Positions 166 to 45,621 are shown, counted from the stretch's first letter. The stretch: 50,918 bases of DNA from Patescibacteria group bacterium (GCA_028694925.1 JAQVJW010000003.1:1-50918); one strand, 5' to 3'. The notes: generated by a model not told the origin, from the sequence alone. Made by a program: numbers and translations.

Positions 166-276
166 CGTGCTTGTGCCTTTGGTAATATCCGTAGCAACTA
201 CCCCGCCTGAAAGGAGGGGATACACTAGAAATCGCAGCTCATTCGCAGTAGTAATTCTACCAGGAAGGCAAGAACC

Positions 277-468
277 ATGAAAGCTATCATCGGGATCATT
301 CTTTTGGCATCCGCGGGGGCCTTGGTCGTTTTTGGCCACATCACCCTGGCGTCAGGAGAACTGAATTCTCTTGTGAGGCTCTGGGTGTATGCGGGTATGA
401 CCGCCTTTCCGGGCGGGCTACTCTATACAGCTCATCGTCTCTGGAGAAGTTCAGACCAAGCCGTCTAG
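277..468 (+). CDS. Orphan 63-aa membrane microprotein, two predicted TM helices
   Basis: SD AGGAAGG 262-268, ATG 277, two hydrophobic stretches; promoter upstream, terminator downstream. Confidence 0.65.
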   Translation: MKAIIGIILLASAGALVVFGHITLASGELNSLVRLWVYAGMTAFPGGLLYTAHRLWRSSDQAV

Positions 469-588
469 GTCTGGTCTCGAAAATCGAATAGCTCTAATAC
501 GTGAACAACTCCCCTTGGGAGTTACAAGTTGGTAGGCGACCCGCCCTCTCCTCCCCCCCTCAGGGGCGGATCCCGCCGCCAGCACTCG

Positions 589-627
589 AAGGGACGGCCG
601 AACCCCCACGGCCGTCCCTTTCTCTTT
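589..627 (+). terminator. Intrinsic terminator
   Basis: aagggacggccg-aaccccca-cggccgtccctt, 12-bp stem plus tctcttt. Confidence 0.8.
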
Positions 628-645
628 GTTATAATAAGCTTTGCC

Positions 646-674
646 TTGTTGTTTGAGCTAATTTAGGCTATAAT
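646..674 (+). promoter_or_regulatory. sigma70 promoter
   Basis: TTGTTG, 17 nt, TATAAT (669-674). Confidence 0.65.
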
Positions 675-716
675 ACTCGCACATTAGGGGATGGACCTTG
701 AAGGAGGCGAAACCAC

Positions 717-926
717 ATGTACGAATGGAAGGAAGAGCATGGAGGTGGCGTGGTTTCACATCGCCTCTATGTCGATCGTAAACGAACCCAGGTCTATATC
801 ATGCGCAAGCATGGAATAGAGGGTCCTTGGGTCATCCGAGATGGTACCAGGTACGTTCTCGAAAGGCGGGCCTTGCCTCATGCAAAGGCGGCTTACCTGA
901 AGCTACTCAAGATGATGGGGAGGTGA
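717..926 (+). CDS. Orphan 69-aa basic protein
   Basis: SD AAGGAGG 701-707 then ATG 717. Confidence 0.7.
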   Translation: MYEWKEEHGGGVVSHRLYVDRKRTQVYIMRKHGIEGPWVIRDGTRYVLERRALPHAKAAYLKLLKMMGR

Positions 927-932
927 TAAGAG

Positions 933-1298
933 ATGAAGCTGCTTCTTGTGCTTCTAGCTCTGATCATCACGATCTATTTCTTCAGGCAAGGTACTTCGCT
1001 TTTTTTGGAGAGACGAAGGATCTCCGGTGTCATCTTCGCCAAGGGAAGTATCGTGCTGCTCGGGACGTTCACCGTCTACGTCTTGTACGGCAGACCCGGG
1101 ATACAGATTCAAGTGGCGATAGCATACTGGGAAGCCGCTGGATTCTCCAGCTGGGCCTCATACATGGCCGCCAAGGCATACCTGGACAGTCGAAGCCGAG
1201 TTGCATTGGGGGGGTGGCTTCTAATGTTGCTGCTTTCGGGGTTCCTCGTCGGCTATGGAGTGCTAATCCTGCAAGGGATTATCCCGGTTACCGGCTAG
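933..1298 (+). CDS. Orphan 121-aa membrane protein (about 4 TM)
   Basis: SD GGAGGTGA overlapping upstream stop; several hydrophobic segments. Confidence 0.7.
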   Translation: MKLLLVLLALIITIYFFRQGTSLFLERRRISGVIFAKGSIVLLGTFTVYVLYGRPGIQIQVAIAYWEAAGFSSWASYMAAKAYLDSRSRVALGGWLLMLLLSGFLVGYGVLILQGIIPVTG

Positions 1299-1318
1299 TG
1301 AATGGGGAGGTGAACAGC

Positions 1319-1507
1319 ATGGATGTCGATAAGGATAAGGTCTACAAGAACTGGACCCCGGAGGAGATCCGTCAGTTTGTCAAGACGGATCCCGGAATCC
1401 GGGAATATATCGACGAGCGAGTTCGACAGGAACTCGCAGAGAGGTTCAATCTTCCCCGAGAACTGAGTGGGCTCGACAGAATCGGGACAGATTCAACCCA
1501 CGAGTGA
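1319..1507 (+). CDS. Orphan 62-aa charged protein (MDVDKDKVYKNW...)
   Basis: SD GGGGAGG then ATG 1319; this is the 3' part of track ORF 827..1507. Confidence 0.65.
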   Translation: MDVDKDKVYKNWTPEEIRQFVKTDPGIREYIDERVRQELAERFNLPRELSGLDRIGTDSTHE

Positions 1508-1540
1508 ATAACGCACCAATGGTAAAAGTATTACCCTGAT

Positions 1541-1565
1541 GGGCCGGCAGTAACCGGCCCTTTTG
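1541..1565 (+). terminator. Intrinsic terminator
   Basis: gggccgg-cagtaa-ccggccc-tttt. Confidence 0.8.
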
Positions 1566-1608
1566 TCTACTTGAATCTAGCCTTTCTTTCCTGTTTACTG
1601 TTATTAAG

Positions 1609-2940: not shown

Positions 2941-2969
2941 TAACTAGTAAGTTTGAAAGGATTTATCTT

Positions 2970-5214: not shown

Positions 5215-5216
5215 TT

Positions 5217-7850: not shown

Positions 7851-7875
7851 TGCCTTAAATCCTAAATTAAGTCCA

Positions 7876-7903
7876 TTGAATTATACAGAAAACTTCATAT
7901 AAT
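7876..7903 (+). promoter_or_regulatory. tyrS promoter overlapping a divergent -10 for the PBP gene
   Basis: TTGAAT, 16 nt, TATAAT (7898-7903); minus-strand TATAAT at 7880-7885. Confidence 0.55.
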
Positions 7904-7918
7904 GTAAAGGTAATAGAT

Positions 7919-9112
7919 ATGCTAAAAAAGAAGGAATTATTTGTGAAGAAAGAAGAAATCATCAAGGATATTCTAACTCGAGGCGTGACGAATGTTATTG
8001 AAAAAAAGCATTTAGAAGAAGCCCTAAAATCAGGGAAAAAGCTTCGGATAAAGCTTGGGATCGATCCAACAGGGCCAAAAATCCACATCGGAAGGGCTTT
8101 TACGTTATGGAAGCTGAGACAGTTCCAGGAGCTGGGACATAAAGTCGTCCTCATAATCGGTGACTTTACCGGGCAGATAGGAGATGCGTCCGATAAAGAG
8201 GCTGAGAGACAGGCTTTGTCTCTTTCCGACATAAAAAGAAACATGAAGACATATGAAGATCAAATCGGAAAAATTCTCGATATGAAGAAGGTGGAGATTC
8301 GTTACAATTCCGAGTGGCTAGGAAAGCTCTCGGCGCAGGACTTAGTAGAGGAGGCGATGAATTTTACGGTGGCTCAAATGATCGAGCGCGACAATTATTG
8401 GGAACGATTTAAGAACGGTAAGCCAATTGGACTTCACGAAATTCTTTATCCGATATTTCAGGGATATGATTCCGTAGCCATAAAGTCCGACGTTGAGATC
8501 GGAGGGAACGATCAGCTATTTAATTTACTTGCCGGAAGGGTAGTCCAGAAAAAGCACGGGCAAAAAGAGCAAGACATTTTAACTTTTGAGATGCTCGAAG
8601 GGACAGATGGTCGCAAGATGAGTACTTCTTGGGGGAATTGCATCTATATAGAAGATGATCCCAGTGAAATGTATGGAAAGGTAATGTCTATTACTGACGA
8701 TTTAATCAAGAGATATTTTGTCCTTGGGACTTGGGTTTCAGAAAGAGAGACCAAGAAGATACTTAAAAAGGGCCCAAGAGAAGCCAAAGGGCAGCTAGCT
8801 TTTGAGATTGTAAAGCGGTATCACGGGGAAACGAAAGCAAAAAAAGCAGAAAAAAATTTCGAACAAAAGTTTGTTAAAAATGAAACACCGGAGGAAATGC
8901 CCGAGGTTAAACTCGTTTATGCTGCACAGCCATTAGCTGATATTCTTACCGACATAAGGCTTACCGCATCAAAATCAGAAGCTAGAAGAATGATTGAGCA
9001 AGGAGCGGTTAAGGTTGATGGAGCGACGATTGGCGATCGCGAAGCGGTTATTGATCCAATTTCGGGAATGGTTATTCAGGTTGGGAAAAGAAAGTTTGTA
9101 AGAGTAAAATGA
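7919..9112 (+). CDS. tyrS: Tyrosyl-tRNA synthetase
   Basis: LGIDPTG, IGDFTGQIGD, YP.FQGYD, GG.DQLFN, C-terminal S4 domain; variant HIGR/KMSTS signatures. Confidence 0.96.
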   Translation: MLKKKELFVKKEEIIKDILTRGVTNVIEKKHLEEALKSGKKLRIKLGIDPTGPKIHIGRAFTLWKLRQFQELGHKVVLIIGDFTGQIGDASDKEAERQALSLSDIKRNMKTYEDQIGKILDMKKVEIRYNSEWLGKLSAQDLVEEAMNFTVAQMIERDNYWERFKNGKPIGLHEILYPIFQGYDSVAIKSDVEIGGNDQLFNLLAGRVVQKKHGQKEQDILTFEMLEGTDGRKMSTSWGNCIYIEDDPSEMYGKVMSITDDLIKRYFVLGTWVSERETKKILKKGPREAKGQLAFEIVKRYHGETKAKKAEKNFEQKFVKNETPEEMPEVKLVYAAQPLADILTDIRLTASKSEARRMIEQGAVKVDGATIGDREAVIDPISGMVIQVGKRKFVRVK

Positions 9113-10158: not shown

Positions 10159-10194
10159 TTGTTTAAATAATTTTAGTAAGAGTAAAATAAGGGT

Positions 10195-12888: not shown

Positions 12889-12973
12889 GCCGGAGTGGCG
12901 GAACTGGTAGACGCGCTAGTCTTAGGAACTAGTGGGAATTCCCGTGGAGGTTCGAGTCCTCTCTCCGGCACCA
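12889..12973 (+). tRNA. tRNA-Leu (anticodon TAG)
   Basis: acceptor GCCGGAG/CTCCGGC, D-loop GGTA, anticodon stem CTAGT/ACTAG with loop CTTAGGA, long variable arm, TTCGAGT T-loop, encoded CCA. Confidence 0.97.
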
Positions 12974-13025: not shown

Positions 13026-13580
13026 ATGGTAATAAAGAAGCTACCCCAAATTGGGGACCCAATATTAAGGAAAAGGGCAAAGAACTTAACTTTTAGAGAC
13101 CTTCGTGATCCTCGGACCAAGAGAATAATCAAAGACCTTATAGATACGATGCGTGAACGAGGTCTGGTGGGTATCGCGGCACCACAGCTTGGTGAAAGTG
13201 TTCGAATTTTTGTTGTTGAGGTTAGGCCCACCAAAGTAAGGAAGCTGGAACTAGAGCCTTTAAGAATATTTATTAATCCTCGTATAAATTGGAAATCAAA
13301 ACAAACCGTTGTGGATTACGAGGGTTGTGGCAGTGTTCTTAATGGGAAGATCTTTGGACCCGTTAGAAGGCACAAAAGTATTGTAATTGAATATGATGAT
13401 ATTGAGGGAGGTCGTCATAAATTAAAAGCAACTGGCAATCTTTCTATCATTGTTCAACATGAGTATGATCACCTTAATGGCATTCTCTTTACTGATAAAT
13501 TGACCGACAACAAGAAAATATTAGATTATGATCATTATCTTAAGATGCGTAAGGATTACCATAAATCTCAAAGAAAATAA
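13026..13580 (+). CDS. def: Peptide deformylase
   Basis: GLVGIAAPQLG, EGCGS, QHEYDHLNG. Confidence 0.95.
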   Translation: MVIKKLPQIGDPILRKRAKNLTFRDLRDPRTKRIIKDLIDTMRERGLVGIAAPQLGESVRIFVVEVRPTKVRKLELEPLRIFINPRINWKSKQTVVDYEGCGSVLNGKIFGPVRRHKSIVIEYDDIEGGRHKLKATGNLSIIVQHEYDHLNGILFTDKLTDNKKILDYDHYLKMRKDYHKSQRK

Positions 13581-13587
13581 GGACTTA

Positions 13588-13613
13588 AAAACCACTCGTT
13601 AGAGTGGGGTTTG
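13588..13613 (-). terminator. Intrinsic terminator for the minus-strand insert (may also end def)
   Basis: minus strand ccactc-taac-gagtgg-ttttt. Confidence 0.6.
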
Positions 13614-13650
13614 ATAGAGAGCGGGGCCCCCGGCAACGCCGGGAGCCCCG

Positions 13651-14067
13651 TCAAGTAGAGCCAAAGCCACTACTGGTGCAACACCCTTGCATCTGGATGG
13701 CGCCCGAGCGTACTCGGACGACTTCGCATTTCCCTGCGCAGGGCGGGCGTCTGCCCGAGTTTGGCGCAAGAGCTACTTTTTTCACTCTCGGCCTGGGTCC
13801 CTTGACCCATAATCCCTTGGCCGATTGGCCTACCAATCGCCCGAAGGCAAATGGTTTCTTGAGCGATGCCCCTCTGGCATCGGGATTTCTGAGACTTCTA
13901 GGCCTCGGAGTTCTCACTCCACCTCTGTTCGGCGAGGAGCCGGACCACTCAAGGTCTAGGTTTGGGAACGGAGGATTGCTATGGTAGCCGTTTCTCCAGA
14001 ATTCCCCGTCACTCGAGGCGGAACGATACCCTCTCTCGAGGGACGAATCCGCTATACTCATCTTCAC
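13651..14067 (-). CDS. Possible 138-aa orphan, P/G/R/S-rich with C-terminal Cys residues; may be non-coding
   Basis: open frame ending just before the 13622-13650 hairpin; weak SD, composition typical of GC-rich chance ORFs. Confidence 0.25.
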   Translation of the reverse strand: MKMSIADSSLERGYRSASSDGEFWRNGYHSNPPFPNLDLEWSGSSPNRGGVRTPRPRSLRNPDARGASLKKPFAFGRLVGQSAKGLWVKGPRPRVKKVALAPNSGRRPPCAGKCEVVRVRSGAIQMQGCCTSSGFGST

Positions 14068-14103
14068 CGCAGTGTCCCATTAAGGACAGTGCGGGCGAAA
14101 CCG

Positions 14104-14235
14104 TCAAGCGAACCCCGCCGGATAGCCGCATGGACAGCGCTTGAGTCGGAACCCCGCCCAGCGCGGACGCCCGTCAGGCGTCGTAGTCGTCGCTATCGGC
14201 GGTCCGATACTCGGTGCTTCCGGAAACAGCATCAC
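14104..14235 (-). CDS. Possible 43-aa peptide (MMLFPEAPSIGPP...KRCPCGYPAGFA)
   Basis: SD GGGGAGGTGA upstream of GTG-ATG. Confidence 0.35.
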   Translation of the reverse strand: MMLFPEAPSIGPPIATTTTPDGRPRWAGFRLKRCPCGYPAGFA

Positions 14236-14420
14236 CGCGTTTCACCTCCCCCTGGTAGTTCGCCAAAAAAAGGTGCTGCTGGGGCTTTACCCGTCTCTTT
14301 CTACGGGCCTAGCCCCTGCGCCGGCTGACCGTCGTGGTCAGCTAGCGAGCTCGCCGTCGATCGCGACGATCGCGACGACGTCGATGATCATCGTGTGCGG
14401 ATGCGGAGTTTTGGTAGGCA

Positions 14421-14456
14421 CTAGCCTGTCGACCTCTTCACACCCATAGCGACCAT
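14421..14456 (-). CDS. Possible 11-aa leader peptide MVAMGVKRSTG
   Basis: strong SD GGAGGAAGGAG directly upstream; first start codon after the promoter. Confidence 0.35.
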   Translation of the reverse strand: MVAMGVKRSTG

Positions 14457-14526
14457 CTTCTCCTTCCTCCCCGAAGGGAACTGCGCCACCTGCACCTTGC
14501 CGGCAGGTAGCTAATGAAGAATAAAA

Positions 14527-14555
14527 AAAAGATAGCACAAACATAAGAACTTGTC
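14527..14555 (-). promoter_or_regulatory. sigma70 promoter driving the minus-strand insert
   Basis: minus strand TTGACA-agttcttatgtttgtgc (17 nt)-TATCTT. Confidence 0.7.
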
Positions 14556-14578
14556 AAATGTTTTGTGCAATTTGATGG

Positions 14579-20000: not shown

Positions 20001-20555
20001 GCCTTCGAGGAGCGGGTAACGGTCGGCATAACCTATGTGCTTAAGCTACACCACATGGTGGAAGACAAGATCCACGCTCGGTCAATTGGTTCATATGCGA
20101 TGGTTACTCAGCAACCACTTGGTGGTAAGGCGCAATTCGGTGGACAACGTTTCGGTGAAATGGAAGTTTGGGCCCTTGAGGCCTATGGGGCAGCTCATAC
20201 CCTCCAAGAGGTTCTAACGATTAAATCAGATGATGTTCTTGGGCGTTCAAGAGCCTATGAAGCCATCATTAAAGGTGATGTTATCACCGAACCTCGAGTG
20301 CCAGAATCTTTCAATGTGCTTGTAAAAGAGCTTCAAGGGCTTGGTCTTGCGATTGACCTTCTCTCAGATGTCAAAAATGAAGAGGTTTCGGCTGACGAAG
20401 TGATTGAAGAAGGTTACGAAGAGGGGATTAAAGATTTAAAAGACTCGGGTCTTATTGAGGGAAGTGTAGCGGCTAATCTACCGAAGATAGATGTTGAAAA
20501 GGAGGCTCAGATAGATGAATTTGAGGCTATAAAGGAGGATAAAGATGCAAAATAG
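17052..20555 (+). CDS. rpoB: RNA polymerase beta subunit
   Basis: SQLSQFMDQ, ETPEGPNIGL, NYEDA, GDKMANRHGNKG, GGQRFGEMEVWALEAYGA. Confidence 0.99.
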   Translation: MAQSSNVATSVKRKYYRPLESVLDLPNLIEIQTNSYEWFIREGIKEVLDEVSPIVDFSGNQYSLSFGNYYLDEPKYSEKDSRKKKINYEAPLKVEVSLKNLETGKVKKQEVFLSDLPLMTEQGTFIINGVERVIISQLVRSAGVFFTAEEVGGNKFFGAKVIPGRGAWLELETATNGAIYAKIDRRRKIPITTLVRAFGASTDEEIKKLFRDVNTDPDMNYIEATLEKDVTTNADEAFIEIYKKIRPGDLATAENARQLIEGMFFDFKKYDLSRVGRYKMNRMLGFDVPNKKENRILRKEDFIAIVKEVIKRNVTQGEATDIDHLANRRVRAVGELLQQRFRVGVLRAERNIKDRMSTADPKVVSPSSLINIRPISSVIKEFFASSQLSQFMDQTNPLSELVNKRRLSALGPGGLSKERAGFDVRDVHRTHYGRICPNETPEGPNIGLVNYLASYARVNEYGFLETPYRKVIGRVANDGKAAEGYKMGETITGIGKKGEKITKTIAGKIAKKKDLKEIKVIPVVTKEVEYLTADVEEAAVIAQANTEITSDGHFKNELITVRKNGEAAEASIDEVTYMDVASEQIVSVSTGLVPFLEHDDGKRNLMAANMQRQAVPLLAPEAPIVGTGLEKKVAKDSGLTIFAPEPGKVLSVTGATLKVRFDKRGEELIELKKYQRTNDDTCINQRAVVEEGHRFKKGDVLIDGPAAEGGELAIGQNLLVAYMAFSGYNYEDAIIISERLVKEDTYSSVHLELFTIDVRDTKLGAEMVTRDIPNVSEESLRNLDEDGIIRIGAEVEPGDILVGKITPKGETELSAEERLLRAIFGEKARDVKDTSLRVQPGVHGKVVDVSARERDKGDDLPAGVIKQIDVLVAKLVKITVGDKMANRHGNKGVIARIAPVEDMPYLADGTPVDMVLNPLGVSARMNVGQILETHLGWAALALGIKVASPVFMGPSPEMIKEELRNAGLPEDGKTVLYDGRTGDAFEERVTVGITYVLKLHHMVEDKIHARSIGSYAMVTQQPLGGKAQFGGQRFGEMEVWALEAYGAAHTLQEVLTIKSDDVLGRSRAYEAIIKGDVITEPRVPESFNVLVKELQGLGLAIDLLSDVKNEEVSADEVIEEGYEEGIKDLKDSGLIEGSVAANLPKIDVEKEAQIDEFEAIKEDKDAK

Positions 20556-27441: not shown

Positions 27442-27475
27442 GAGATAAGGGCAATGCATAAGCGTTGCCTTTATC
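27442..27475 (+). terminator. 15-bp hairpin after fusA, probable terminator
   Basis: agataagggcaatgc-ataa-gcgttgcctttatct (with G-U pairs). Confidence 0.5.
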
Positions 27476-27504
27476 TTGTGGATAAATAAATTACGCGATA
27501 TAAT
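27476..27504 (+). promoter_or_regulatory. Promoter of micro-ORF operon; -35 overlaps a DnaA box (27477-27485)
   Basis: TTGTGG, 17 nt, TATAAT (27499-27504). Confidence 0.6.
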
Positions 27505-27579
27505 ACGCCTACTAACGGTAATGGGTGTTTGGGGTAAGCCGCGCACCTTAACTTGCAAGTTCGGAAAGGGCTGGTGCAC

Positions 27580-27774
27580 ATGAGGAAAGCGTATCAGCTC
27601 CTTCTCTACGCGTCGTATCAGAGCGCCATATTCCTGGCCGTACTCTTCATAAGCCCAAAAGCTGCAAGACGGTTTTTGGGGATTTGGATCGCAACATTCG
27701 TTGGGTATCTTGCTTGTGACATGGGGCCCAAAGACCAGGAAGAGGGTGACCGAGATGCCAGAATGGGCAGTTGA
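27580..27774 (+). CDS. Orphan 64-aa membrane microprotein
   Basis: ATG 27580, two hydrophobic segments then acidic tail; overlaps next ORF. Confidence 0.5.
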   Translation: MRKAYQLLLYASYQSAIFLAVLFISPKAARRFLGIWIATFVGYLACDMGPKDQEEGDRDARMGS

Positions 27775-27928
27775 ATTCCTAACAAGCGAGTACGGGATCC
27801 CAGTTACCCTTGTGGTAACTGCTTTCGTGCTCGTTGGGGTATCGAGGGTGGCCATCCTGTTCATCAGGCCATTCTTCGGGCCTGCACCGAGGACGGGGAA
27901 CATGCCAGAGAACAAATCGAGAAAGTAA
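27755..27928 (+). CDS. Orphan 57-aa single-TM microprotein (MPEWAVEF...)
   Basis: SD GAGGGT then ATG 27755; TM IPVTLVVTAFVLVGVSRVAILFI. Confidence 0.6.
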   Translation: MPEWAVEFLTSEYGIPVTLVVTAFVLVGVSRVAILFIRPFFGPAPRTGNMPENKSRK

Positions 27929-27942
27929 CGGAGGGCGAACCC

Positions 27943-27984
27943 ATGAAGTATGTCAGCGTCGAACGAGAGGGGGTGTCGGCATGA
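27943..27984 (+). CDS. 13-aa peptide MKYVSVEREGVSA
   Basis: SD GGAGG then ATG; stop overlaps the next start (ATGA). Confidence 0.45.
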   Translation: MKYVSVEREGVSA

Positions 27985-28151
27985 CGGCATCTATCGTATC
28001 TTCACTAATCGCAGTAACAGGAGGCGACGGGCTCGGTATTGTGTTCATCTTCTTCGGGTTGCTCCTCACCACATCGTCAGTGGTGCTTGGGGTCTGGGCG
28101 CTTGTGGAACGTTGGTATGACAGGCCCCTAATAGACCCTGGCCCGCAGTAG
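27981..28151 (+). CDS. Orphan 56-aa single-TM microprotein
   Basis: ATGA coupling, SD GAGGGGGTG, TM LGIVFIFFGLLLTTSSVVLGVWALV. Confidence 0.6.
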   Translation: MTASIVSSLIAVTGGDGLGIVFIFFGLLLTTSSVVLGVWALVERWYDRPLIDPGPQ

Positions 28152-28164
28152 AAGGGGGTTTGAA

Positions 28165-28566
28165 GTGACAACGGAGGCGAGGCGCTACCTTGCTGTTCCA
28201 GTACGCATTCTCACGGTGCTGCTTGCTCTTGTGGCGAGTATCGTGGGTTTGCTGAACGGTCTTGGGCGGCTCCTCATAATCTTGGGGTGCTTCTTCTTCG
28301 AAGTCTGGCCGTACTGGATTAGGCAGTCGCTCGAGTATCGTCGAGCGCAACGTCAGGTGAGGCTTGAAGCGAAGCTTGCGACGCTATGTGAGAGCTGTAC
28401 CACGAGGGTAGACAACGACTACATCGGTAGTACACTGACGATCGAGTGCACTTGTCGCAAGTTACAAGCTCTCAAGGCCAGAATTGATCGGATCGATCAC
28501 AACCTGACACTATCTCCGGCATTGCCGGACGAAATGGCTCAGGCTGCGAGCCCAGGCGGGTTCTGA
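28165..28566 (+). CDS. Orphan 133-aa protein: N-terminal TM hairpin plus CxxC...CxC putative metal site
   Basis: GTG after AGGGG; CESC and CTC motifs. Confidence 0.6.
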   Translation: MTTEARRYLAVPVRILTVLLALVASIVGLLNGLGRLLIILGCFFFEVWPYWIRQSLEYRRAQRQVRLEAKLATLCESCTTRVDNDYIGSTLTIECTCRKLQALKARIDRIDHNLTLSPALPDEMAQAASPGGF

Positions 28567-28580
28567 GGGAGGAAGGAGCC

Positions 28581-28757
28581 ATGTATCAATCAGCTCATTC
28601 GACGAAGCCATCCCAGGCAGCCCACTTCGTTGCGTGCATCATCTGCATCGCAGAGGCGCTCAGGGAAGTGGTAGCCCGAGGCATCGACTGGGCGATTCCG
28701 AAGGAGGAAATGCCCGAGGAGCCGGAGGCGTTCGAGCCGAACCCACTCGCTTTGTAG
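28581..28757 (+). CDS. Orphan 58-aa protein (MYQSAHS...CIIC...acidic tail), not in ORF track
   Basis: very strong SD GGAGGAAGGAG then ATG 28581, TAG 28755-28757. Confidence 0.6.
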   Translation: MYQSAHSTKPSQAAHFVACIICIAEALREVVARGIDWAIPKEEMPEEPEAFEPNPLAL

Positions 28758-28817
28758 AGGTCCTCTGAACTTGCTTACCGAAAGGAGGCACACGGGAACA
28801 TGGAGGTTCTCAAGTGT

Positions 28818-28863
28818 CCTTGACGGGCCCGGATCGCAGTTGCGTGACGGGCCCGAAGGCTTT
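28818..28863 (+). terminator. GC hairpin built from two direct copies of TGACGGGCCCG (self-complementary core)
   Basis: copies at 28821-28831 and 28845-28855, flanked by cctt/aagg, followed by cttt. Confidence 0.45.
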
Positions 28864-28875
28864 ATGACAAAAGTC

Positions 28876-28904
28876 TTGCAAACTAGGGAAAAGTTAGGTA
28901 GAAT
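28876..28904 (+). promoter_or_regulatory. tuf promoter; DnaA box downstream at 28943-28951
   Basis: TTGCAA, 17 nt, TAGAAT. Confidence 0.75.
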
Positions 28905-29014
28905 ACGTGATGTAACTCAATAACATGAGTAAACCCACAATTTGTGGATAAGTTTTATTGTCTAAATGCGGAATTATACTAATAAGTCAAAAAAACCGAA
29001 AGGGAGGTAACTAA

Positions 29015-30193: not shown

Positions 30194-30227
30194 CGCGATA
30201 CGAAAGAAGAAAGAACCTTAAAAAGAG

Positions 30228-30551
30228 ATGACAGAAAAAAAAGAATCAAAGCAAAGAATCAGAATAAAGCTCAGAGCGTATGACCATAAGGTTATTGATG
30301 AGTCTGTAAAACAGATCATTGATACTGCTCAGCGCTCCGGAGCTAAGGTAGCCGGACCAATTCCACTACCAACTGAACGTTCACCAATCACCGTTCTTAA
30401 GTCTACTAATCAGCACAAGAACGCCCGGGAACAGTTCGAGATTCGGGTTCATAAACGCTTAATTGATATCTTAGAGCCAAACGCAAAGACAGTTGATTCT
30501 CTTATGAACATCTCTTTACCGGCTGGGGTAGATATCGAGATAAAGATGTAG
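30228..30551 (+). CDS. rpsJ: 30S ribosomal protein S10
   Basis: [33 protein letters not shown]. Confidence 0.98.
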
Positions 30552-30589
30552 AAGAAACTTCGACAATGATTCGGAGTAAGATAGCAAAG

Positions 30590-30624
30590 AACCGCTTCAA
30601 ATGAGGCGGTTTTTTGTGTATAAT
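30590..30624 (+). terminator. Terminator after rpsJ overlapping a promoter for the next insert
   Basis: aaccgc...gcggtt-ttttt; TTCAAA (30596-30601), 17 nt, TATAAT (30619-30624). Confidence 0.7.
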
Positions 30625-30666
30625 GCGTTCAACGTGAAAACGGTAGGAAGCTAGGGAGGTGACTCG

Positions 30667-30966
30667 ATGGGTCGCTCAATGGTAGAAGCCTGCATTTGTT
30701 TTCCTGGAACAACTCTGTATCAGCGTGATCCAGGACTCCGTGGCCTCTACACAAAGATACTTGAGCTTGTCTCTAGCCAGTTCGAAATCGACCCCAAGAA
30801 GGTAGAGTTTCGGAAGTGGGGAAGAGGGATCAAGGTTCGTTTCTGGGTAAAGGGTGACTGCATCGAGGTTGCCTTTTCTGCTAGGGTGATCAACCCAGAA
30901 ACCGGCGTCATTCGCTTTCGAGGAATGAAGTATGTCCTCGATGAAGAAGGGAGCGGGACGTTATGA
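30667..30966 (+). CDS. Orphan 99-aa soluble protein
   Basis: SD GGGAGGTGA then ATG. Confidence 0.7.
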   Translation: MGRSMVEACICFPGTTLYQRDPGLRGLYTKILELVSSQFEIDPKKVEFRKWGRGIKVRFWVKGDCIEVAFSARVINPETGVIRFRGMKYVLDEEGSGTL

Positions 30967-31088
30967 CTATCTGGGCGGCTATATCGCTTCTCCTCCTTGC
31001 GATTTTCGTTTTGGGGAAAACCAAGGTCCGGAGAGACACCTGGTACGATCGAGAAGAGAGGCGCAGGTTGAACGAGTATTTCCTGTGA
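30963..31088 (+). CDS. Orphan 41-aa single-TM microprotein MTIWAAISLLLLAIFVLGKTKVRRDTWYDREERRRLNEYFL, not in ORF track
   Basis: ATGA overlap with upstream stop; TM followed by basic positive-inside tail. Confidence 0.6.
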   Translation: MTIWAAISLLLLAIFVLGKTKVRRDTWYDREERRRLNEYFL

Positions 31089-31131
31089 CACTATTCTCTC
31101 TCGACATCCGATCAAGGGGTCAGTACTCATA

Positions 31132-31178
31132 GGGCGACACTAATCTGTAAGGATGAAGTGTCGCCCGTTCGCTTTCTA
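31132..31178 (+). terminator. Terminator-like hairpin
   Basis: gggcgacact (31132-31141) / agtgtcgccc (31157-31166), then gttcgctttct. Confidence 0.55.
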
Positions 31179-31295
31179 GACAAAAAGAGGCCCAAGACAT
31201 CTCTTGGGACACTCTTATTGGGTAACAATCCTACCGAACTATAAATAATATAGTCTATTTGTTACTATAATTCATTGTTAAAATGACAAAATTGT

Positions 31296-31355: not shown

Positions 31356-32222
31356 ATGAATGTATTAAACAAAAAGCAGACGATTATTGCTTTTGTCATC
31401 CTCGGTCTTTTTACTATTCTTGTTGGTGTTGTTATGTGGTATTTTATCGATTCCAGCTTTAATACCGAAACTACAGAATCAACGGTAGGGGAAACTATTA
31501 CAGAGGATGTGCAATCTGATGAAGTCGAAATACCATCAGATTTTTCTAAGATTACTCTTAATGAGGTTGAAATCTTTTATCCAGAAGACTGGGGGACCCC
31601 TAAAACAGCGGAAACAAAAGAAAATTTATCGGATGACCTGGGCCCGGGCCGAACCTTTGAAGGCGAATACGCCGATTGGGATTTCCTTAATGGAACCGGA
31701 ACATATGTTCAAGTAAACGAGATGGCGAGCTTAAAAAACAAGCTCTCAGAAACACAAAAGGTAATTACAGCTCTCGAGAATACCTACGAAAACAAGAAAC
31801 TCGACGAAGAAGATTTGGCAGGTACTAACTTCGGATACATTCCAAGTCCTAATGCGGGGGTCGTTGCATACACAGCACGTTATGTTGAGAATTATAATAG
31901 TACCTGGCGAGGTTACTGGTATTTGGGGACGATTGGTCAGGACATTAATGCCAGCGTTCATTTTGTGAGTGTGATGTATAACAAAGACCTGGGTAAGGTG
32001 ATGACAGTTGATCAACTCATACCATCAACAATGTCGCGAGCCCTAACAGACAGAATAGCCTCGGTATATAGTGGTACGGGTACCGAGATAGAGCAGAACA
32101 AGTTACAAAATGATCTAACAACTTATATAGAAGGGGTTTACAAGGTTGATGCGGAGATAAAAGAAACTGTGGACAGCGAATTGCTAAATGTATGTAATTT
32201 GGTAGGCTATAAGGAGAACTAA
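31356..32222 (+). CDS. N-terminally anchored acidic extracytoplasmic protein
   Basis: basic N-terminus, TM ending WYF, acidic linker, IFYPEDW motif. Confidence 0.8.
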   Translation: MNVLNKKQTIIAFVILGLFTILVGVVMWYFIDSSFNTETTESTVGETITEDVQSDEVEIPSDFSKITLNEVEIFYPEDWGTPKTAETKENLSDDLGPGRTFEGEYADWDFLNGTGTYVQVNEMASLKNKLSETQKVITALENTYENKKLDEEDLAGTNFGYIPSPNAGVVAYTARYVENYNSTWRGYWYLGTIGQDINASVHFVSVMYNKDLGKVMTVDQLIPSTMSRALTDRIASVYSGTGTEIEQNKLQNDLTTYIEGVYKVDAEIKETVDSELLNVCNLVGYKEN

Positions 32223-32893
32223 TGGAAAAAGAAAAATTTAACTGGAAAAGGCTCGGTATCACAGTTGTTATTGTATTACTTGCAGTTGGAGCTACTGGTG
32301 GTACTACCTGGTACTTTATGGATAAATATGCTCAAGAGCAACAGAATGAACTTGAGGCACAGATTGAGGAACTTAGGAGTCAGGTTAATGAAGAAGAGGC
32401 AGGGGAGGAGGAAACAACAGAAGAAATCGGAGTTGATGAGACAGCAGACTGGAAGACATATACAAATAGTGAATATGGGTTTAGCTTTATGTATCCAACT
32501 GGTTGGGTAGTAGAAGACAATCTACAGGATAAGGGCGAAATTCCAAAATCAAGTGAATCCTTGGTTATAAAATTTAATAATAGTGTCGACACTCTAATAT
32601 CTCTGATGATTAACCCAGACGGCCTTGGGCCTATTTTTGCCGATCTAACATATGATTTTAAAATCATTAATAAGGAATTAGAACTAGCTGATCGAGATAT
32701 CGTTGAATATGAAGAGGGGGGTGGTCTAGTAGATCCGGCTAACGATGGAAGGACAATCATCTCTCCTGATAATTCAACTTCTAAGTTAGAGTATAGCGGC
32801 GATAATTATTTTTTCACTGCTATAATGGCTGACTCCCAAACAAATAAAGAAGAACTAATTGTTCAAATATTAGAAACATTTAAGTTTAACTAA
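32222..32893 (+). CDS. N-terminally anchored extracytoplasmic protein with PsbP-like domain
   Basis: TM ending WYF, coiled-coil/acidic linker, WKTYTNSEYGFSFMYPTGW and terminal QILETFKF typical of PsbP-related domains. Confidence 0.8.
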   Translation: MEKEKFNWKRLGITVVIVLLAVGATGGTTWYFMDKYAQEQQNELEAQIEELRSQVNEEEAGEEETTEEIGVDETADWKTYTNSEYGFSFMYPTGWVVEDNLQDKGEIPKSSESLVIKFNNSVDTLISLMINPDGLGPIFADLTYDFKIINKELELADRDIVEYEEGGGLVDPANDGRTIISPDNSTSKLEYSGDNYFFTAIMADSQTNKEELIVQILETFKFN

Positions 32894-32902
32894 GGAGGGT
32901 TT

Positions 32903-33481
32903 ATGGAAACATTAAAATCAAAAGAAGTGGATTGGAAAAAGATTGCGGTTGTAGCAGCACTAGTAGCTCTAACGGCGCTTGTAGTCGGTGTCCTTATCTG
33001 GTACTACAAAGGTCAAGAAGTCCTGACTCAAGCCGAATATTATGAGAAGGAACTATATAACAAAAACATTGAGTTATTAAAAAGTGGAAGTCAAACAGGA
33101 GAAGGCTGTGATACAGCCACAACACTTGAAGAGTGTGAAACCGTTATAGCCTACGAGCGAGCCGGACTTTTTGAAGGTAATGAGAAGACAGATATTGAAA
33201 CAAAGATAGTAGAACCATATATCTATTATGCCAATAATGTCGAGAGCTCAAGTAGGGTGGTGGCGGTAGTAGTCGATAAGTATCCAGCCGATGAGAGACC
33301 ATCAAATTACTGGTTCTCGATAACCGCCGTCCATCAGAATGGTGGGACGACCGGTTGGCTTGTCGGAGAAAACGGTACAATAAGCTACTGGGCTCCGGAA
33401 TGTATGGATACCTGTACTTTAACTCAAGCCTTTGTTGATAAATATCCGAATAACTTACCGACTGATTACGAGGTAAAATAG
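32903..33481 (+). CDS. N-terminally anchored extracytoplasmic protein with two Cys pairs
   Basis: TM ending WYY; C...C and CMDTC; SD AAGGAGG. Confidence 0.8.
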   Translation: METLKSKEVDWKKIAVVAALVALTALVVGVLIWYYKGQEVLTQAEYYEKELYNKNIELLKSGSQTGEGCDTATTLEECETVIAYERAGLFEGNEKTDIETKIVEPYIYYANNVESSSRVVAVVVDKYPADERPSNYWFSITAVHQNGGTTGWLVGENGTISYWAPECMDTCTLTQAFVDKYPNNLPTDYEVK

Positions 33482-33493
33482 CCAGGAGCTATA

Positions 33494-34270
33494 ATCTATA
33501 TCGCTAAAGCAAGTCTACACATGCATTCAATCGCTAGCGACGGCATCAATACGGCGCTGGCGATTGTTACTTATGCAAAATTATCAAAGATAGATATTAT
33601 CTCTATTACGGACCACAATGAGATAACAGCTACATTAAGAGGGGAGAAGATTGCCGAAAGGCTTGGAATTATCTATTTTCCTGGTATTGAACTCATGTTT
33701 CGGGTGGGTGGTAAAGTGTATGAACTTTTAGGGTATTTCTATACCGGAGAAGAACTTAAGGCCTTCTATAAATCATACCGTTTTACTAACGGATTCATGC
33801 CCCATTTTAAGAGTGTTCAAGAAGTGGTCAAAATGATCAGGGGTCACGGTGGGGCAGTTGTTTCACCTCACCCATTTGGTCGTAAGGGGATATACCGTAA
33901 ATTACGAAATGCTGAGGTGATGGTTGATGGCATCGAGGTAATAAATGGTTTTACGGGTGAAAAACGAAATGGGAAAGCAGCGATTCTAAAGACCAGAAAT
34001 GAAGACGCTCGAAAGCTAGGAGCTTCTGATATGCATTTTTTCCTCTCGGATATGAAAAAAGTATATACCAGACTTGAGAGTAAAAAGGAGATTACAAAAG
34101 AGCTTTTTTGGGATGCCCTCAAGGGAAGGAATAACGACATATTCTTTAAACCGGTTGGGAAATCATTCGTAAAAAGAAAAATTTTCTTTCAAAAGCCATT
34201 ATGCGTAGCGGTATATACTATTAATTGGCCTTGGCTATATGCAAAATATAGGTATCGTAAAAACCGTTGA
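33494..34270 (+). CDS. PHP-domain metal-dependent phosphoesterase; start probably a non-AUG codon upstream of the first ATG (33521)
   Basis: LHMHSIASDG, ISITDHN, GIE, SPHPF, IEVING, GASDMH; first His of HxH lies at 33518-33520. Confidence 0.8.
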   Translation: MYIAKASLHMHSIASDGINTALAIVTYAKLSKIDIISITDHNEITATLRGEKIAERLGIIYFPGIELMFRVGGKVYELLGYFYTGEELKAFYKSYRFTNGFMPHFKSVQEVVKMIRGHGGAVVSPHPFGRKGIYRKLRNAEVMVDGIEVINGFTGEKRNGKAAILKTRNEDARKLGASDMHFFLSDMKKVYTRLESKKEITKELFWDALKGRNNDIFFKPVGKSFVKRKIFFQKPLCVAVYTINWPWLYAKYRYRKNR

Positions 34271-37018: not shown

Positions 37019-37030
37019 TAGTGAGGAAAG

Positions 37031-37522: not shown

Positions 37523-37523
37523 C

Positions 37524-40307: not shown

Positions 40308-40316
40308 GGAGTTTTT

Positions 40317-40502: not shown

Positions 40503-40513
40503 AAAGGAAAAAT

Positions 40514-40897: not shown

Positions 40898-40905
40898 GGA
40901 GCAGT

Positions 40906-41448: not shown

Positions 41449-41457
41449 CGAGGTATT

Positions 41458-41799: not shown

Positions 41800-41808
41800 G
41801 GAGATTAA

Positions 41809-42384: not shown

Positions 42385-42803
42385 TGGAACTTTCAAATTT
42401 AAAGAAATTAACCAAAAATAAAACCCGCAAGGGGAGAGGAATCTCGGCCGGGAAGGGTAAAACAGCTGGACGAGGGACCAAGGGTCAAAAGTCACGTACT
42501 GGGGGGAATATAAAGCCGGGATTTGAGGGTGGTCAAATGCCCTTAAAGCAGAGGATCCCCAAAAAGAGAGGCTTTAAATCACGAAACGAAAAACCAGTCA
42601 CCGTCACCCTCGGACGACTTAATAGATTTAAGGATGGCTCAGTAGTTACGGAAAAAAAGCTTAAAGAAGAGGGGATAATCTCCCGCGATTCTGCTAAAAT
42701 TGTTGATGGGGGAGAACTCACAAAAAAACTTACTATCGCCCTACCGATTTCAAAAGGAGCAGCTGAGAAGGTAAAAAAAGCCGGCGGTAAAATAGAAAGG
42801 TAG
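42384..42803 (+). CDS. rplO: 50S ribosomal protein L15
   Basis: GRGISAGKGKTAGRG.KGQKSR, FEGGQMPL. Confidence 0.98.
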   Translation: MELSNLKKLTKNKTRKGRGISAGKGKTAGRGTKGQKSRTGGNIKPGFEGGQMPLKQRIPKKRGFKSRNEKPVTVTLGRLNRFKDGSVVTEKKLKEEGIISRDSAKIVDGGELTKKLTIALPISKGAAEKVKKAGGKIER

Positions 42804-42804
42804 A

Positions 42805-44115
42805 ATGAAAAAGTTCTTGGAAATAATCTCAGACAAAAATCTCTTAAAGAAGATTTTATTTATCTTTTTTATCCTTTTATTGTTTCGAGTAGCTGCTCAT
42901 GTTCCGATCCCAGGCCCAGATCCTGAAAATGTTCGAAACTTTCTCGCTGAAGCCTTTAAAGGTAATTCTTTATTATCATTTTTGGATATCTTTTCTGGTG
43001 GTGGTATCTCTCGATTTTCGGTTGTGATGATGGGTCTTGGACCATATATCACGGCCTCGATTATGATCCAACTACTGACGATGATTTCGCCAAAGCTTGA
43101 GGCCCTCTCTAAAGAGGGTGAGGAAGGACATCGGAAGATGAACCAGTATTCCCGTCTTCTAACCTTACCCCTTGCCTTTGTTGAAGGTTATGCTGGAATC
43201 AGGTTCCTTCAGTACTCAGGCTCTCAGGCTGGGACCGACTTTTTAGGGAACATTACGTTAGCTGATTGGGGGCTGATGCTCCTTTCAATTGCAGCTGGGA
43301 CGATGTTTTTGATGTGGCTTGGAGAGCTCATTACTGATAAGGGGCTTGGGAACGGAGTGTCGATAATCATCTTTGCTGGGATTATAGCAGGTCTTCCTCA
43401 GTCGGTTGGTCAGGCTGTTCAAAAAATCATTATCTCAGAATACGATCCAACTCAAATCATGACCCAAGCAGGCATTTTAGTCGCGATAGTAATAGCTATC
43501 ATCGCCATTATATTTGTTACCGAGGGCCAGCGTAGATTACCGATTTCTTACGCTAAGAAAGTTCGAGGGGCCAAGCTTTATGGTGGGATTGAAAGTTTCC
43601 TCCCGATAAAGCTTAATATGTCTGGAGTTATCCCAATTATCTTTGCCGGAGCTTTTATGAACCTACCGACAATGATTGGATTCTTCTCACAAGTCAAAAA
43701 TCAAACAATTGCAAATGCCGCAACCTGGATCCAGGAGACTTTTAATCCCCAGGGGCTCCCGTATGCCGTAATGTTCTTCGTCCTTGTCTTTGCCTTTACT
43801 TTTTTTTCAACCTTCCTTTATTTTAAGCCTAAGGATGTAGCCGAGAACCTTCAAAAGCATGGCGGCTTTATCCCAGGGATTAGGCCGGGGACTCAAACTG
43901 AGAAGTATCTTTCCTGGCTTATAAACCGAGTGACCTTATGGGGGGCAATCTTCCTTTCAGCGATAGCTGTCCTCCCGTTTATTATTCAAATATATGCTAA
44001 TGTTGGAAATATCATCATCGGTGGTACCGGGCTTCTGATCGTAGTCGGAGTTGCGATTGAGATTAAAAACCAGATTGATGCGCAGATTGTGACGAAGTCT
44101 TATGAGGGGATCTAG
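42805..44115 (+). CDS. secY: Preprotein translocase subunit SecY
   Basis: [47 protein letters not shown]. Confidence 0.98.
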
Positions 44116-44645
44116 TGATTACCTTTATTACAGGCAATCAAAACAAACTTAGAGAAGCTAGGGAGATTTTGGGTGACGTAGAGGGACACGAGATTGACTT
44201 ACCAGAGATTCAAGAGGTTGATCCTCATATAATAATTAAGGCAAAGATGGATGAGGCAAAGAAGCAAGGTCTTAAGAACTTTATTGTTGAAGACACCTCA
44301 CTATATTTTGATGGCCTTAATGGTTTACCAGGACCTCTGATTAAATGGTTCTTGGACAAACTCGGTAATGATGGACTTTATGATTTAGTTAAAGACAAGG
44401 ACCCGAAGGCTCAAGCTAAAACTATTATTGGTTACTCCGATAAAGAAGGTAAAATTAGCTATCACGAAGGAATAATAGAGGGAGAAATAGTGGCTCCAAA
44501 AGGAGACACTAATTTTGGTTGGGACCCGATATTTAAGCCGGATGGACACGACAAAACCTTTGCCGAAATGGGCCCAGAAGAGAAGAACACGGTTAGTATG
44601 CGGAAAATGGCTTTAGAAGAGTTAAAAAAATACCTAACCGAATAA
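44115..44645 (+). CDS. Ham1/RdgB-family non-canonical purine NTP pyrophosphatase (ITP/XTP/dITP)
   Basis: TGNQNK, EDTSL, GLPGP, FGWDPIF; terminal SHR motif is SMR; GTG overlaps secY stop. Confidence 0.9.
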
Positions 44646-44651
44646 TAACTA

Positions 44652-44680
44652 TTTACAGATAATGATTATTGTGTTATTAT
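44652..44680 (+). promoter_or_regulatory. Promoter (extended -10) for the insert orphan
   Basis: TTTACA, 17 nt, TGt-TATTAT. Confidence 0.6.
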
Positions 44681-44804
44681 GACTATCTTATAGTACCTTA
44701 AAATCCTTCTTAGGGACTGGTAATTTGGAATTAAAAAGTTAATTCTAGTTTGCCGTTCCCTACGAAGGGCGGAAACCGAAGACCCCTACGAGGGTCGAAA
44801 GGAA

Positions 44805-45572
44805 GTGGTTGTGTTGATCAAGAATAATATCTACCTTCAGATGGGGGATGTTCCTCCGGAGCTACGCACTGCACTGACCGACAAGATACGTGTGCTCGAA
44901 AGTGAGAATCGCTGGGAGAGCACTTTCGAGGGCCCGACCAACTCAATTACTCCAGTTCTCAACATGGCTCTCGACGACGGAGCTCAAGTCACGAGCTTCA
45001 TCGAGTGCCTCATCAAGAAGCGTCACAACCCCCCACTAGTAGACGGGGAAATCCGCGAACAACTCTTTGAGCTCGTGGGACTACACCCGTATCTCTACAA
45101 CATCCCCAGGCTTCGTCAGTGGTCCGAGCTGTTGGGCTGGGAGAAGGTCCTTGACGCTGAGTTCGTCACGGCGTATCGGGCCTGCAAGCTGATCACTACC
45201 GAGGGACACGGTGATGGTTTCGAGTACCATTTCACCGTCGACGTGGAGGGATACAAGTTGGGTCTAGATGTTATCACTAATAGGGCTAGGCTCAACACCG
45301 CGGATATGCGTGAAGGCGGAAGAGATACGAGAAAGTCTTGGGGTTACCCCCTGGCTCAAGCTCGAATCTTGAATGACCCACAAAGTCTCACTCAGCTGAA
45401 GGAGGATATGGCCGAGTACCGCTATTGGACACGTCTTGCCAAGCGCCTGATCATCAAGGCTGGTCACGCCGACTACGCTGGGCTACCCTTCGGCCAGACG
45501 ATGGCCTCAATCGAGGTGGCCGATCATCCCTTCTTCCAGGACCGCGACGAATGGGAGATGGTCTGGGTCTAG
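44805..45572 (+). CDS. Orphan 255-aa soluble protein in GC-rich insert
   Basis: long open frame, SD AAGGA upstream of GTG/GTG/TTG candidates, terminator downstream; no family recognised. Confidence 0.75.
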   Translation: MVVLIKNNIYLQMGDVPPELRTALTDKIRVLESENRWESTFEGPTNSITPVLNMALDDGAQVTSFIECLIKKRHNPPLVDGEIREQLFELVGLHPYLYNIPRLRQWSELLGWEKVLDAEFVTAYRACKLITTEGHGDGFEYHFTVDVEGYKLGLDVITNRARLNTADMREGGRDTRKSWGYPLAQARILNDPQSLTQLKEDMAEYRYWTRLAKRLIIKAGHADYAGLPFGQTMASIEVADHPFFQDRDEWEMVWV

Positions 45573-45591
45573 CCACCCAGGTTTCCGCAGG

Positions 45592-45621
45592 GCCCCGGCG
45601 CGCAATGCGCCGGGGCTTTCT
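45592..45621 (+). terminator. Intrinsic terminator
   Basis: gccccggcgc-gcaat-gcgccggggc-tttct. Confidence 0.75.

Follow-up and report, generated by a model that had tools for sequence, protein, structure and literature searches.

The 50,918-nucleotide (nt) stretch of Patescibacteria DNA analysed here in full (GCA_028694925.1, JAQVJW010000003.1:1–50918; the window) carries five GC-rich islands, I1 to I5, set between its housekeeping genes. With a probability of about 0.6, we read these as independent, lineage-specific accessory cassettes drawn from a GC-rich gene pool that is exchanged among Patescibacteria. The window is contig C4 of a metagenome-assembled genome (MAG; G000) of 665 kb in 32 contigs and ∼43% GC, and genome comparison assigns this host to a small order represented by 28 species genomes. 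From gene order and family searches we identified radA, a class A penicillin-binding protein gene, tyrS, recG, tRNA-Leu, def, trxA, tig, clpP, rpoB, rpoC, rpsL, rpsG, fusA, tuf and rpsJ, together with the S10-spc ribosomal block, secY, infA and further ribosomal genes.

Five GC-rich islands between core genes

Islands were defined from a 400-nt GC profile together with a 200-nt window scan (GC ≥ 0.52). Against a window mean of 0.439, these are I1 at 188–1584 (GC 0.53), I2 at 13535–14558 (0.57, with a core of 0.59–0.63), I3 at 27506–28923 (0.55), I4 at 30721–31173 (0.51, the weakest of the five) and I5 at 44737–45694 (0.53). GC-rich inserts at these places had been claimed in a first-pass annotation of the window, and the GC values of 0.51–0.57 confirm them. 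Each island is bordered on one side by the terminator of the preceding housekeeping gene and on the other by the promoter of the next, and even the str and S10-spc ribosomal clusters are interrupted in this way. The native tuf and infA promoters stand directly 3′ of I3 and I5, respectively, and both are conserved in the family relative G003. These two promoters (28870–28885 and 45626–45640) have the upstream string AAAAGTCTTGCA in common, an A-tract plus a TTGCA −35 element, which is also kept in G003.

The first-pass annotation had described a single design for all five inserts, each with a σ70 promoter and a terminator-like hairpin. The layout is indeed common to them; the sequence is not, and protein cassettes are mixed with a candidate RNA gene. 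Promoters were found in all five, that of I3 with a weak −35 element, while terminal hairpins are listed for I1, I2, I3 and I5. The earlier view of the inserts as self-contained expression modules is supported. Comparison of the islands within the window showed no mutual sequence similarity, common repeats or paralogues, and all five are single-copy in the genome. Genome-wide, we counted 55 GC-rich stretches of at least 400 bp (∼45.5 kb, ∼7% of the genome), an unfiltered count that includes possible rRNA and GC-rich core genes; these also have essentially no mutual similarity at the DNA or open reading frame (ORF) level. The five islands of the window are therefore samples of a genome-wide feature. 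The heptamer GTACCTT was considered as a common transcript-start motif and rejected, as it is not enriched genome-wide (67 sites against 87 expected).

The same sites in family relatives

We compared the syntenic regions in three members of the family, G003 (EF-Tu 97% identical), G004 and G002. The flanking core proteins were all found, at 60–97% identity, and none of the island ORFs was. The secY–infA spacer, which holds ham1 and I5 in G000, measures 51 bp in G003 and 59 bp in G004; the clpC–radA spacer, the site of I1, is 45 bp in G003, and the def–trxA spacer, the site of I2, is 98 bp in G004 with 19% GC. The remaining two sites, fusA–tuf and rpsJ–rplC, contain different, non-homologous fillers in the relatives. 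In all four family genomes the fusA–tuf gap (1601 bp with I3 in G000, 835–1409 bp in the relatives) is occupied, with a raised GC of 0.47–0.57 in its core. The fillers align only in the tuf promoter and leader and in a terminator hairpin whose pairing is retained through compensatory changes. The rpsJ–rplC site, occupied by I4 and other genes in G000, is variable in the relatives, with a PHP-like gene alone conserved.

The islands had been proposed to be lineage-specific, and this holds: in G003, G004 and G002 the sites are either vacant or occupied by other sequence, and the I5 gene is absent from 27 of 27 other genomes of the order. The inserts are not ordinary conserved gene families in these relatives either, with no island ORF found in G002–G004 and no significant match for the island ORFs (up to 10) in Pfam, NCBIfam or PADLOC.

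Immediately upstream of I5, window positions 44115–44645 hold a Ham1/ITPase gene of host-like GC, directly 3′ of secY, that is likewise missing between secY and infA in both G003 and G004. An insert of ordinary composition has thus entered this gap too. G003 has GC-rich islands of its own (L017, 250–2000 and 17400–18400) with no relative anywhere in G000, one of which lies between recG and an rsmD-like gene and contains an ORF of 310 amino acids (aa).

I5 carries a member of a rare protein family behind a conserved leader

The I5 cassette (44631..45631, + strand) comprises a promoter at 44652–44680 (TTTACA-17-TGnTATTAT) 3′ of ham1, a leader at 44693–44804, an ORF running from 44805, or from an ATG at 44841, to 45572, and a terminator hairpin at 45590–45616. 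It is flanked by a 10-nt direct repeat, GTTAAAAAAA, at 44621–44630 and 45622–45631, 1001 bp apart. Six copies of this sequence exist in the 665-kb genome. The one to the left of I5 falls within the final codons of ham1, and the one to the right adjoins the infA promoter.

The product of I5 is a cytoplasmic protein of 243–255 aa (255 aa in full, 243 aa from the ATG that aligns with its homologues). An AlphaFold2 model reached a pLDDT of 67 and a pTM of 0.60, and neither Foldseek against the PDB nor a profile search against PDB sequences gave a meaningful match; the protein has no match to a known family, structure or fold. A word-indexed search of 5.8 billion proteins returned I5 itself only. 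A full HMMER scan with I5 gave two full-length relatives, P0003 and P0002. The former is encoded on L024 (∼35% GC, identical to part of the 47-kb contig L031) within an island of 52–63% GC, whereas P0002 groups with members of the family from Actinomycetota. A pattern scan of species genomes found such actinobacterial members in four Actinomycetota MAGs, where the gene is native in composition, with surroundings of ∼73% GC and GC at third codon positions (GC3) of 0.82–0.96. A third low-GC locus, L032, was recovered by an exact-pattern metagenome scan with the core of the leader and shows the same order of promoter, leader and gene. The region upstream of the gene in L024 likewise matches I5, in promoter spacing and in a leader of ∼120 nt. 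In L024/L031 and in L032 alike, the gene lies in an island of GC 0.56 within a host of ∼35% GC.

The I5 homologues are full-length, with conserved motifs. Protein identity is 24–32% among the three low-GC members (the window, L024/L031 and L032), 21–27% between these and the actinobacterial members (L023, L025–L028), and 67–88% among the actinobacterial members themselves. The I5 family is distantly related by descent to genes of high-GC Actinomycetota. In composition, its three low-GC members are alike (GC 0.56–0.57, GC3 0.66–0.71) in hosts of 35–44% GC. Because the unit of promoter, leader and gene is found at other chromosomal sites in two further low-GC contigs, we take I5 to have spread horizontally as such a unit. 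Spread between genomes had been suggested for all the inserts; it is supported in this form for I5 and not for I1–I4.

In the predicted fold of the I5 leader, the 5′ ACCUU pairs with the AAGG of the Shine–Dalgarno (SD) sequence and encloses two hairpins. Over the three low-GC loci the leader has 77% column identity and 29 predicted pairs. Covariation in this small sample consists of double changes in three pairs and G-U-tolerant single changes in several. The consensus fold again joins the 5′ CCUU to the SD AAGG around a long hairpin and a second hairpin. In the long hairpin, the 3′ arm UUGCCGUUCCC is invariant and changes in the 5′ arm are G-U-compatible only, and the second hairpin occurs as the compensatory variants GACCC/GGGUC, GAACCC/GGGUUC and GGAUCC/GGAUCC. 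The leader therefore combines conserved structure with compensatory changes upstream of orthologues at three loci, which is what identifies a cis-regulatory leader. It is absent from the actinobacterial loci, and the segment 44690–44810 has no match in Rfam 15 at E ≤ 5. Known SD-sequestering leaders (ribosomal-protein leaders, RNA thermometers and riboswitch expression platforms) resemble it in that the SD helix is closed by the 5′ end of the transcript; unlike them, the I5 leader belongs to no Rfam family and is restricted to one rare orphan gene family. A covariance model of the leader (R1), run over 400 genomes of the phylum, gave weak, architecture-level matches only, in G029, G045 and G140. 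In two of these distant Patescibacteria (L034 1501–1609 from G029 and L035 1501–1621 from G045) the match has a 5′ ACCUU, a long GGCAA...UUGCC hairpin and then an SD sequence, and the rest differs.

We also folded the leader of each island from its inferred transcript start to the start codon. A helix closing the 5′ end onto the SD is predicted in I1a and I1b (the two units of I1), in I5 and in the second island of L024, and not in I3 or I4. Folding exceeds that of shuffled sequences only for the I5 and L024 leaders (z = −4.2 and −6.0), and a common SD-sequestering logic across the islands is therefore suggestive at the level of these models.

Coding signal differs between islands

Coding signal was assessed from the stop-free run relative to dinucleotide shuffles (300 for I5), the period-3 signal and GC by codon position. 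As a genome reference, 304 long ORFs have a GC3 of 0.41 ± 0.05 and just two of them reach 0.60, which makes the island ORFs compositional outliers. I5 is a real protein-coding gene: its stop-free run was exceeded by none of 300 shuffles, GC at the three codon positions is 0.60/0.38/0.66, and its period-3 signal of 36.6 is tuf-like. I1 has a coding signal, with p = 0.003 for the stop-free run and a period-3 signal of 10.3 over 717–1507; in I3 and I4 the signal is weak, with p = 0.013 and 0.037 for the stop-free run. The ORFs of I1 and I3 have well-spaced SD sites upstream and GC3 above GC2. The small ORFs of I1, I3 and I4 are plausible but unproven as protein genes, mostly of membrane type. The cargo had been described as small SD-led ORFs, often with a single transmembrane segment and coupled through ATGA. 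That description suits I1, I3 and I4, with one ATGA overlap (at 30963), and fails for I2, which has no significant ORF, and for I5, whose cargo is one gene of 243–255 aa.

I2 is a candidate for a large folded RNA

The I2 unit lies on the minus strand (13592..14557; ∼930 nt, 59–63% GC), with a promoter at 14557–14529 (TTGACA-17-TGnTATCTT) and a terminator hairpin at 13607–13592 that stands back-to-back with def and is common to both. Its stop-free run is at the level of shuffles (p = 0.36) and its period-3 signal falls within them. The minus strand (950 nt) folds to a minimum free energy of −442 kcal/mol (z = −8.2 against shuffles) and the plus strand to −405 kcal/mol (z = −8.1). A sampled scan of local 150-nt windows on the minus strand gave a mean z of −3.2, down to −5.2, compared with −0.3 for 88 control windows, and the predicted fold consists of hairpins almost wall to wall. 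Among the islands, only I2 folds over its whole length far beyond shuffles.

Absence of coding signal, excess folding and a promoter and terminator of its own are the generic marks of a structured-RNA gene. With no ORF or periodicity, a fold z of about −8 and this minus-strand promoter and terminator, we regard I2 as a candidate orphan structured-RNA gene of ∼930 nt. The window had also been suggested to hold a layer of small proteins or small RNAs, and it is for the RNA part that I2, which resembles an RNA gene, speaks. RNase P RNA was rejected as its identity, the true gene being on contig C25. Rfam 15 covariance models gave no match to 13590–14560 at E ≤ 5; over the whole window, at both the gathering cut-off and E ≤ 5, they matched tRNA-Leu (12889–12973) only. 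At the DNA level, 41 relatives and 400 genomes of the phylum yielded no homologue of I2, just short low-complexity matches. I2 is like the large non-coding RNAs found by the GC–intergenic region (GC-IGR) approach (OLE, GOLLD, ROOL, HEARO and raiA) in being long, intergenic, GC-rich and densely folded, with a promoter and terminator of its own; unlike them, it has no Rfam match even at the relaxed cut-off and no known homologue.

Origin of the cassettes

On our preferred reading, each cassette would have landed where, in a ∼0.7-Mb genome, a short spacer parts the terminator of one housekeeping gene from the promoter of the next. There it would be transcribed from its own AT-rich, host-type σ70 promoter and end at its own GC-rich hairpin, so that it would neither need nor disturb the flanking operon. 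The cargo would be orphan protein genes in four cassettes and a stable folded RNA of ∼930 nt in I2. In the leaders of I1a, I1b and I5, the putative 5′ end of the transcript (..GCCUU or ACCUU) would pair with the SD and enclose one to several hairpins, and this predicted pairing would probably hold off translation until the leader is opened. The cargo is proposed to come from a GC-rich gene pool circulating among Patescibacteria. Insertion most likely took place by DNA uptake followed by recombination, either by microhomology or with the conserved core-gene flanks as homology arms, a route that we infer because no mobility gene was found and the sole border trace is the 10-bp repeat at I5.

Genomic islets are small, integrase-less islands of accessory genes at hot spots between core genes, with atypical G+C. 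The cassettes are like them in atypical composition, in being lineage-specific with empty sites in relatives, in their orphan cargo and in the use of hot spots such as fusA–tuf. They are unlike them in that they are very small (0.5–1.4 kb) and each is a complete unit of promoter, leader, cargo and terminator; in that the cargo is always GC-richer than the host, with the intermediate GC of I5 lasting across very divergent copies; and in that they lie within the str and S10-spc ribosomal clusters. We therefore describe the cassettes as a variant of such islets. Islands acquired by horizontal gene transfer in Patescibacteria have been surveyed in PMC12455944.

The genomes of Patescibacteria are tiny and streamlined, and the organisms live attached to other cells; the best candidates for a role in host interaction are genes that vary between closely related lineages. 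The cassettes make two questions testable, namely how genes are gained without visible mobile-element machinery and how a foreign base composition persists in the cargo, and they add two new RNA candidates, the ∼930-nt folded RNA and the ∼120-nt leader.

Several points weigh against this reading. Horizontal spread is shown for I5 alone, I1–I4 being without relatives in the searches made, and the taxonomy of L024 and L032 comes from composition only, plus a tRNA flank for L024. The leader folds of I1a and I3 are no better than shuffles. I3 and I4 lack an overall period-3 signal, and some of their small ORFs may be non-coding, because codon periodicity is weak or absent and homologues are lacking. 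The transcription, transcription start sites and translation of the islands are all deduced from DNA features. Finally, the low-GC I5 relatives are just 24–32% identical yet all have a GC3 of 0.66–0.71, and a simple recent import followed by decay to host GC does not explain divergent copies with a constant GC3.

A more far-reaching model, which we put forward tentatively and with low confidence, is a phylum-wide pool of 'compositionally insulated' mini-cassettes that would move without a dedicated recombinase and whose GC3 would long have been held near 0.66–0.71 in hosts of 35–44% GC. The unit may consist of an AT-rich, host-type promoter, an SD-locking leader, GC-rich cargo (protein or large folded RNA) and a GC-rich terminator. 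It may enter core-gene spacers by uptake and recombination, with conserved flanks as homology arms. Either GC-biased gene conversion at such recombination hot spots or selection acting on RNA structure may maintain its GC3. Our literature search turned up no account of these mini-cassettes, of their leaders or of their lasting GC excess.

Recent direct import from a high-GC host or neighbour (Actinomycetota), with the islands still drifting to the composition of the recipient, is unlikely. It would fit the observation that every island is GC-richer than the host, as well as the presence of the I5 family in four Actinomycetota species genomes and one 66%-GC contig, in native surroundings of 69–74% GC. 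However, identity to the actinobacterial I5 proteins is only 21–27%, and the low-GC members are as distant from one another as from Actinomycetota. They also share an AT-rich promoter and a leader that are not present at the actinobacterial loci, and their equal, intermediate GC3 in hosts of 35–44% GC points to long residence in a Patescibacteria pool. For I1–I4 there is no known actinobacterial relative.

Slightly more doubtful still is site-specific capture, whether integron-like or tRNA-targeting, by an integrase acting in trans or since lost. The first-pass annotation had seen no integrase, transposase or attC site, and this is upheld: the Pfam search of the window ORFs found no integrase, transposase or phage gene, all other scanned ORFs being housekeeping, and the five island borders have no common motif, attC-like hairpin family, att site or inverted repeat. 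As insertion sequences or miniature inverted-repeat transposable elements, the islands would share terminal repeats and copies; no common terminal repeats were found among these single-copy elements, and the direct repeat of 10 bp occurs at I5 only. The direct repeat around I5, a motif with only six copies in the genome, is nevertheless a point in favour of capture, as is the setting of the I5 homologue in L024/L031, where it lies in an array of two islands, each headed by a duplicated, att-like module whose start is a tRNA 3′ end. Within the window, no island site coincides with a tRNA end: tRNA-end repeats were found at none of the five, and def lies between I2 and the sole tRNA (Leu, 12889–12973).

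Integron cassettes and CALIN arrays (clusters of attC sites lacking integron-integrases) are comparable in that they are small, mostly orphan and swappable at a fixed locus, as the fusA–tuf filler differs by lineage. The islands differ in having no attC and no IntI in the window and in standing singly rather than in arrays, and their terminal hairpins are unrelated, ordinary terminators. Every cassette also has its own promoter, unlike integron cassettes, and there is therefore no integron-type platform promoter.

The tRNA-end modules of L024 (60–330 and 2040–2300) each comprise the tRNA 3′ end GGGTCCACCA, a terminator hairpin and a promoter, TTGACT-17-TGTAAGAT, and each of the two GC-rich islands of L024/L031 is headed by one. 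Contig C28 of G000 has two copies of this tRNA flank (19048–19146 and 19975–20049; 89–92% identical over 73 nt), one of them attached to a whole tRNA gene. These flanks suggest att-type integration at L024 and C28, and not at the five window sites.

We consider it improbable that all five islands are non-coding structured RNA genes or leaders, with ORFs arising by chance from high GC. I2 is clearly without coding signal, I3 and I4 lack overall period-3, and high GC does lengthen chance ORFs. Against this stand the full-length homologues, conserved motifs and GC-enriched third codon positions of the I5 protein, the well-spaced SD sites and GC3 above GC2 of the I1 and I3 ORFs, and the restriction to I2 of whole-length folding far beyond shuffles.

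A phage origin, as morons, remnants of decayed prophages or other phage-borne accessory genes, is very improbable. In a phage moron, a single gene or a small group of genes is accompanied by a promoter and terminator of its own and stands out from its surroundings in composition. The cassettes have these defining traits, and the 69-aa ORF of I1 gave a match to PHROGs, marginal at E = 8e-4 over 19 residues. This was the single PHROG match among the island ORFs. There is no phage structural, replication or integrase gene in or beside any island, the islands stand singly between core genes outside any prophage, and IMG/VR viral contigs contain no relative of the I5 family profile or of three other island ORFs. 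The cassettes had been likened to phage morons, and without a convincing PHROG family, viral relatives or prophage genes nearby we abandon that comparison.

Chimeric assembly or a GC-richer contaminant is barely credible, even for a 32-contig MAG in which I1 abuts a contig end, since each island lies inside one contig among syntenic core genes, fits precisely between the terminator of one host gene and the promoter of another and has a host-type, AT-rich promoter of its own, since G002–G004 and L024/L031 show the same kind of island, and since independent Logan contigs (run SRR22315504) match 27464–28819 (the interior of I3) and 30212–31237 (the rpsJ–I4 junction) at 100% identity, the latter contig having rpsJ and the 99-aa ORF of I4 on one piece.

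Architecture of I1, I3 and I4

All units described here are on the plus strand. I1 consists of two units. I1a (137..621) begins with a promoter at 137–165 (TTGACA-17-TATAAT) that matches the consensus at 12 of 12 positions, and has a leader of ∼105 nt in which, in the predicted fold, the 5′ UGCCUU pairs with the SD AAGGCA. A 63-aa ORF with an SD and one transmembrane segment follows at 277–468, then a GC-rich, structured 3′ region at 500–621, which ends in a 13-bp terminator hairpin at 588–621. I1b (622..1560) starts directly after this terminator, with an extended −10 promoter, TGTTATAAT, at about 627–635 and a leader at 640–716, whose 5′ UUUGCCUU is predicted to pair with the SD GGAGG (GAGGCGAA). 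Its ORFs lie at 717–926 (69 aa), 933–1298 (121 aa, three transmembrane segments) and 1319–1507 (62 aa), and its terminator hairpin at 1541–1560. The 12-mer ATGGGGAGGTGA, a stop overlap with a strong SD, recurs exactly at 914–926 and 1301–1313, 387 bp apart, and precedes the second and third of these ORFs.

The contig begins at position 1, and the first unit of I1 starts 136 nt from that end. The clpC ortholog of G000 is on contig C14, where it is followed by a GC-rich stretch at 7885–8517 that runs to the end of the contig; the clpC–radA insert must therefore extend beyond I1, across one assembly break or more. Contigs C14 and C2 have a 126-bp end in common, at 99% identity.

The I3 unit (27442..28857) opens with the fusA terminator hairpin (27442–27477, 16 bp), directly 5′ of a promoter at 27476–27504 that was identified by eye (TTGTGG-17-TATAAT, the weak −35 noted above). 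Five small ORFs follow on the same strand, at 27580–27774 (64 aa), 27755–27928 (57 aa), 27981–28151 (56 aa), 28165–28566 (133 aa) and 28581–28757 (58 aa), with SD sites; most of them encode transmembrane segments, one or two each. The unit is closed by a GC-rich terminator hairpin at 28826–28857, and the native tuf promoter lies 3′ of it at 28876–28904. The word-indexed search of 5.8 billion proteins returned only the query itself both for the 133-aa ORF and for the 99-aa ORF of I4.

The I4 unit (30584..31240) begins at the 15-bp rpsJ terminator hairpin (30584–30617), which is followed by TGTGTATAAT. Its promoter at 30596–30624 (TTCAAA-17-TATAAT) has an extended −10, with TGTG before the −10. 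The 99-aa ORF at 30667–30966 overlaps through ATGA with a 41-aa transmembrane ORF at 30963–31088, both having SD sites at suitable spacing, and a structured 3′ region extends over about 31085–31240. Beyond it, four AT-typical ORFs of 288, 223, 192 and 249 aa occupy 31356–34270, between rpsJ/I4 and rplC. Only the 249-aa, PHP-like ORF is conserved at the same spot in G003 and G004, while the 223-aa ORF shows weak PsbP-like similarity, with a counterpart of 25% identity in G004.

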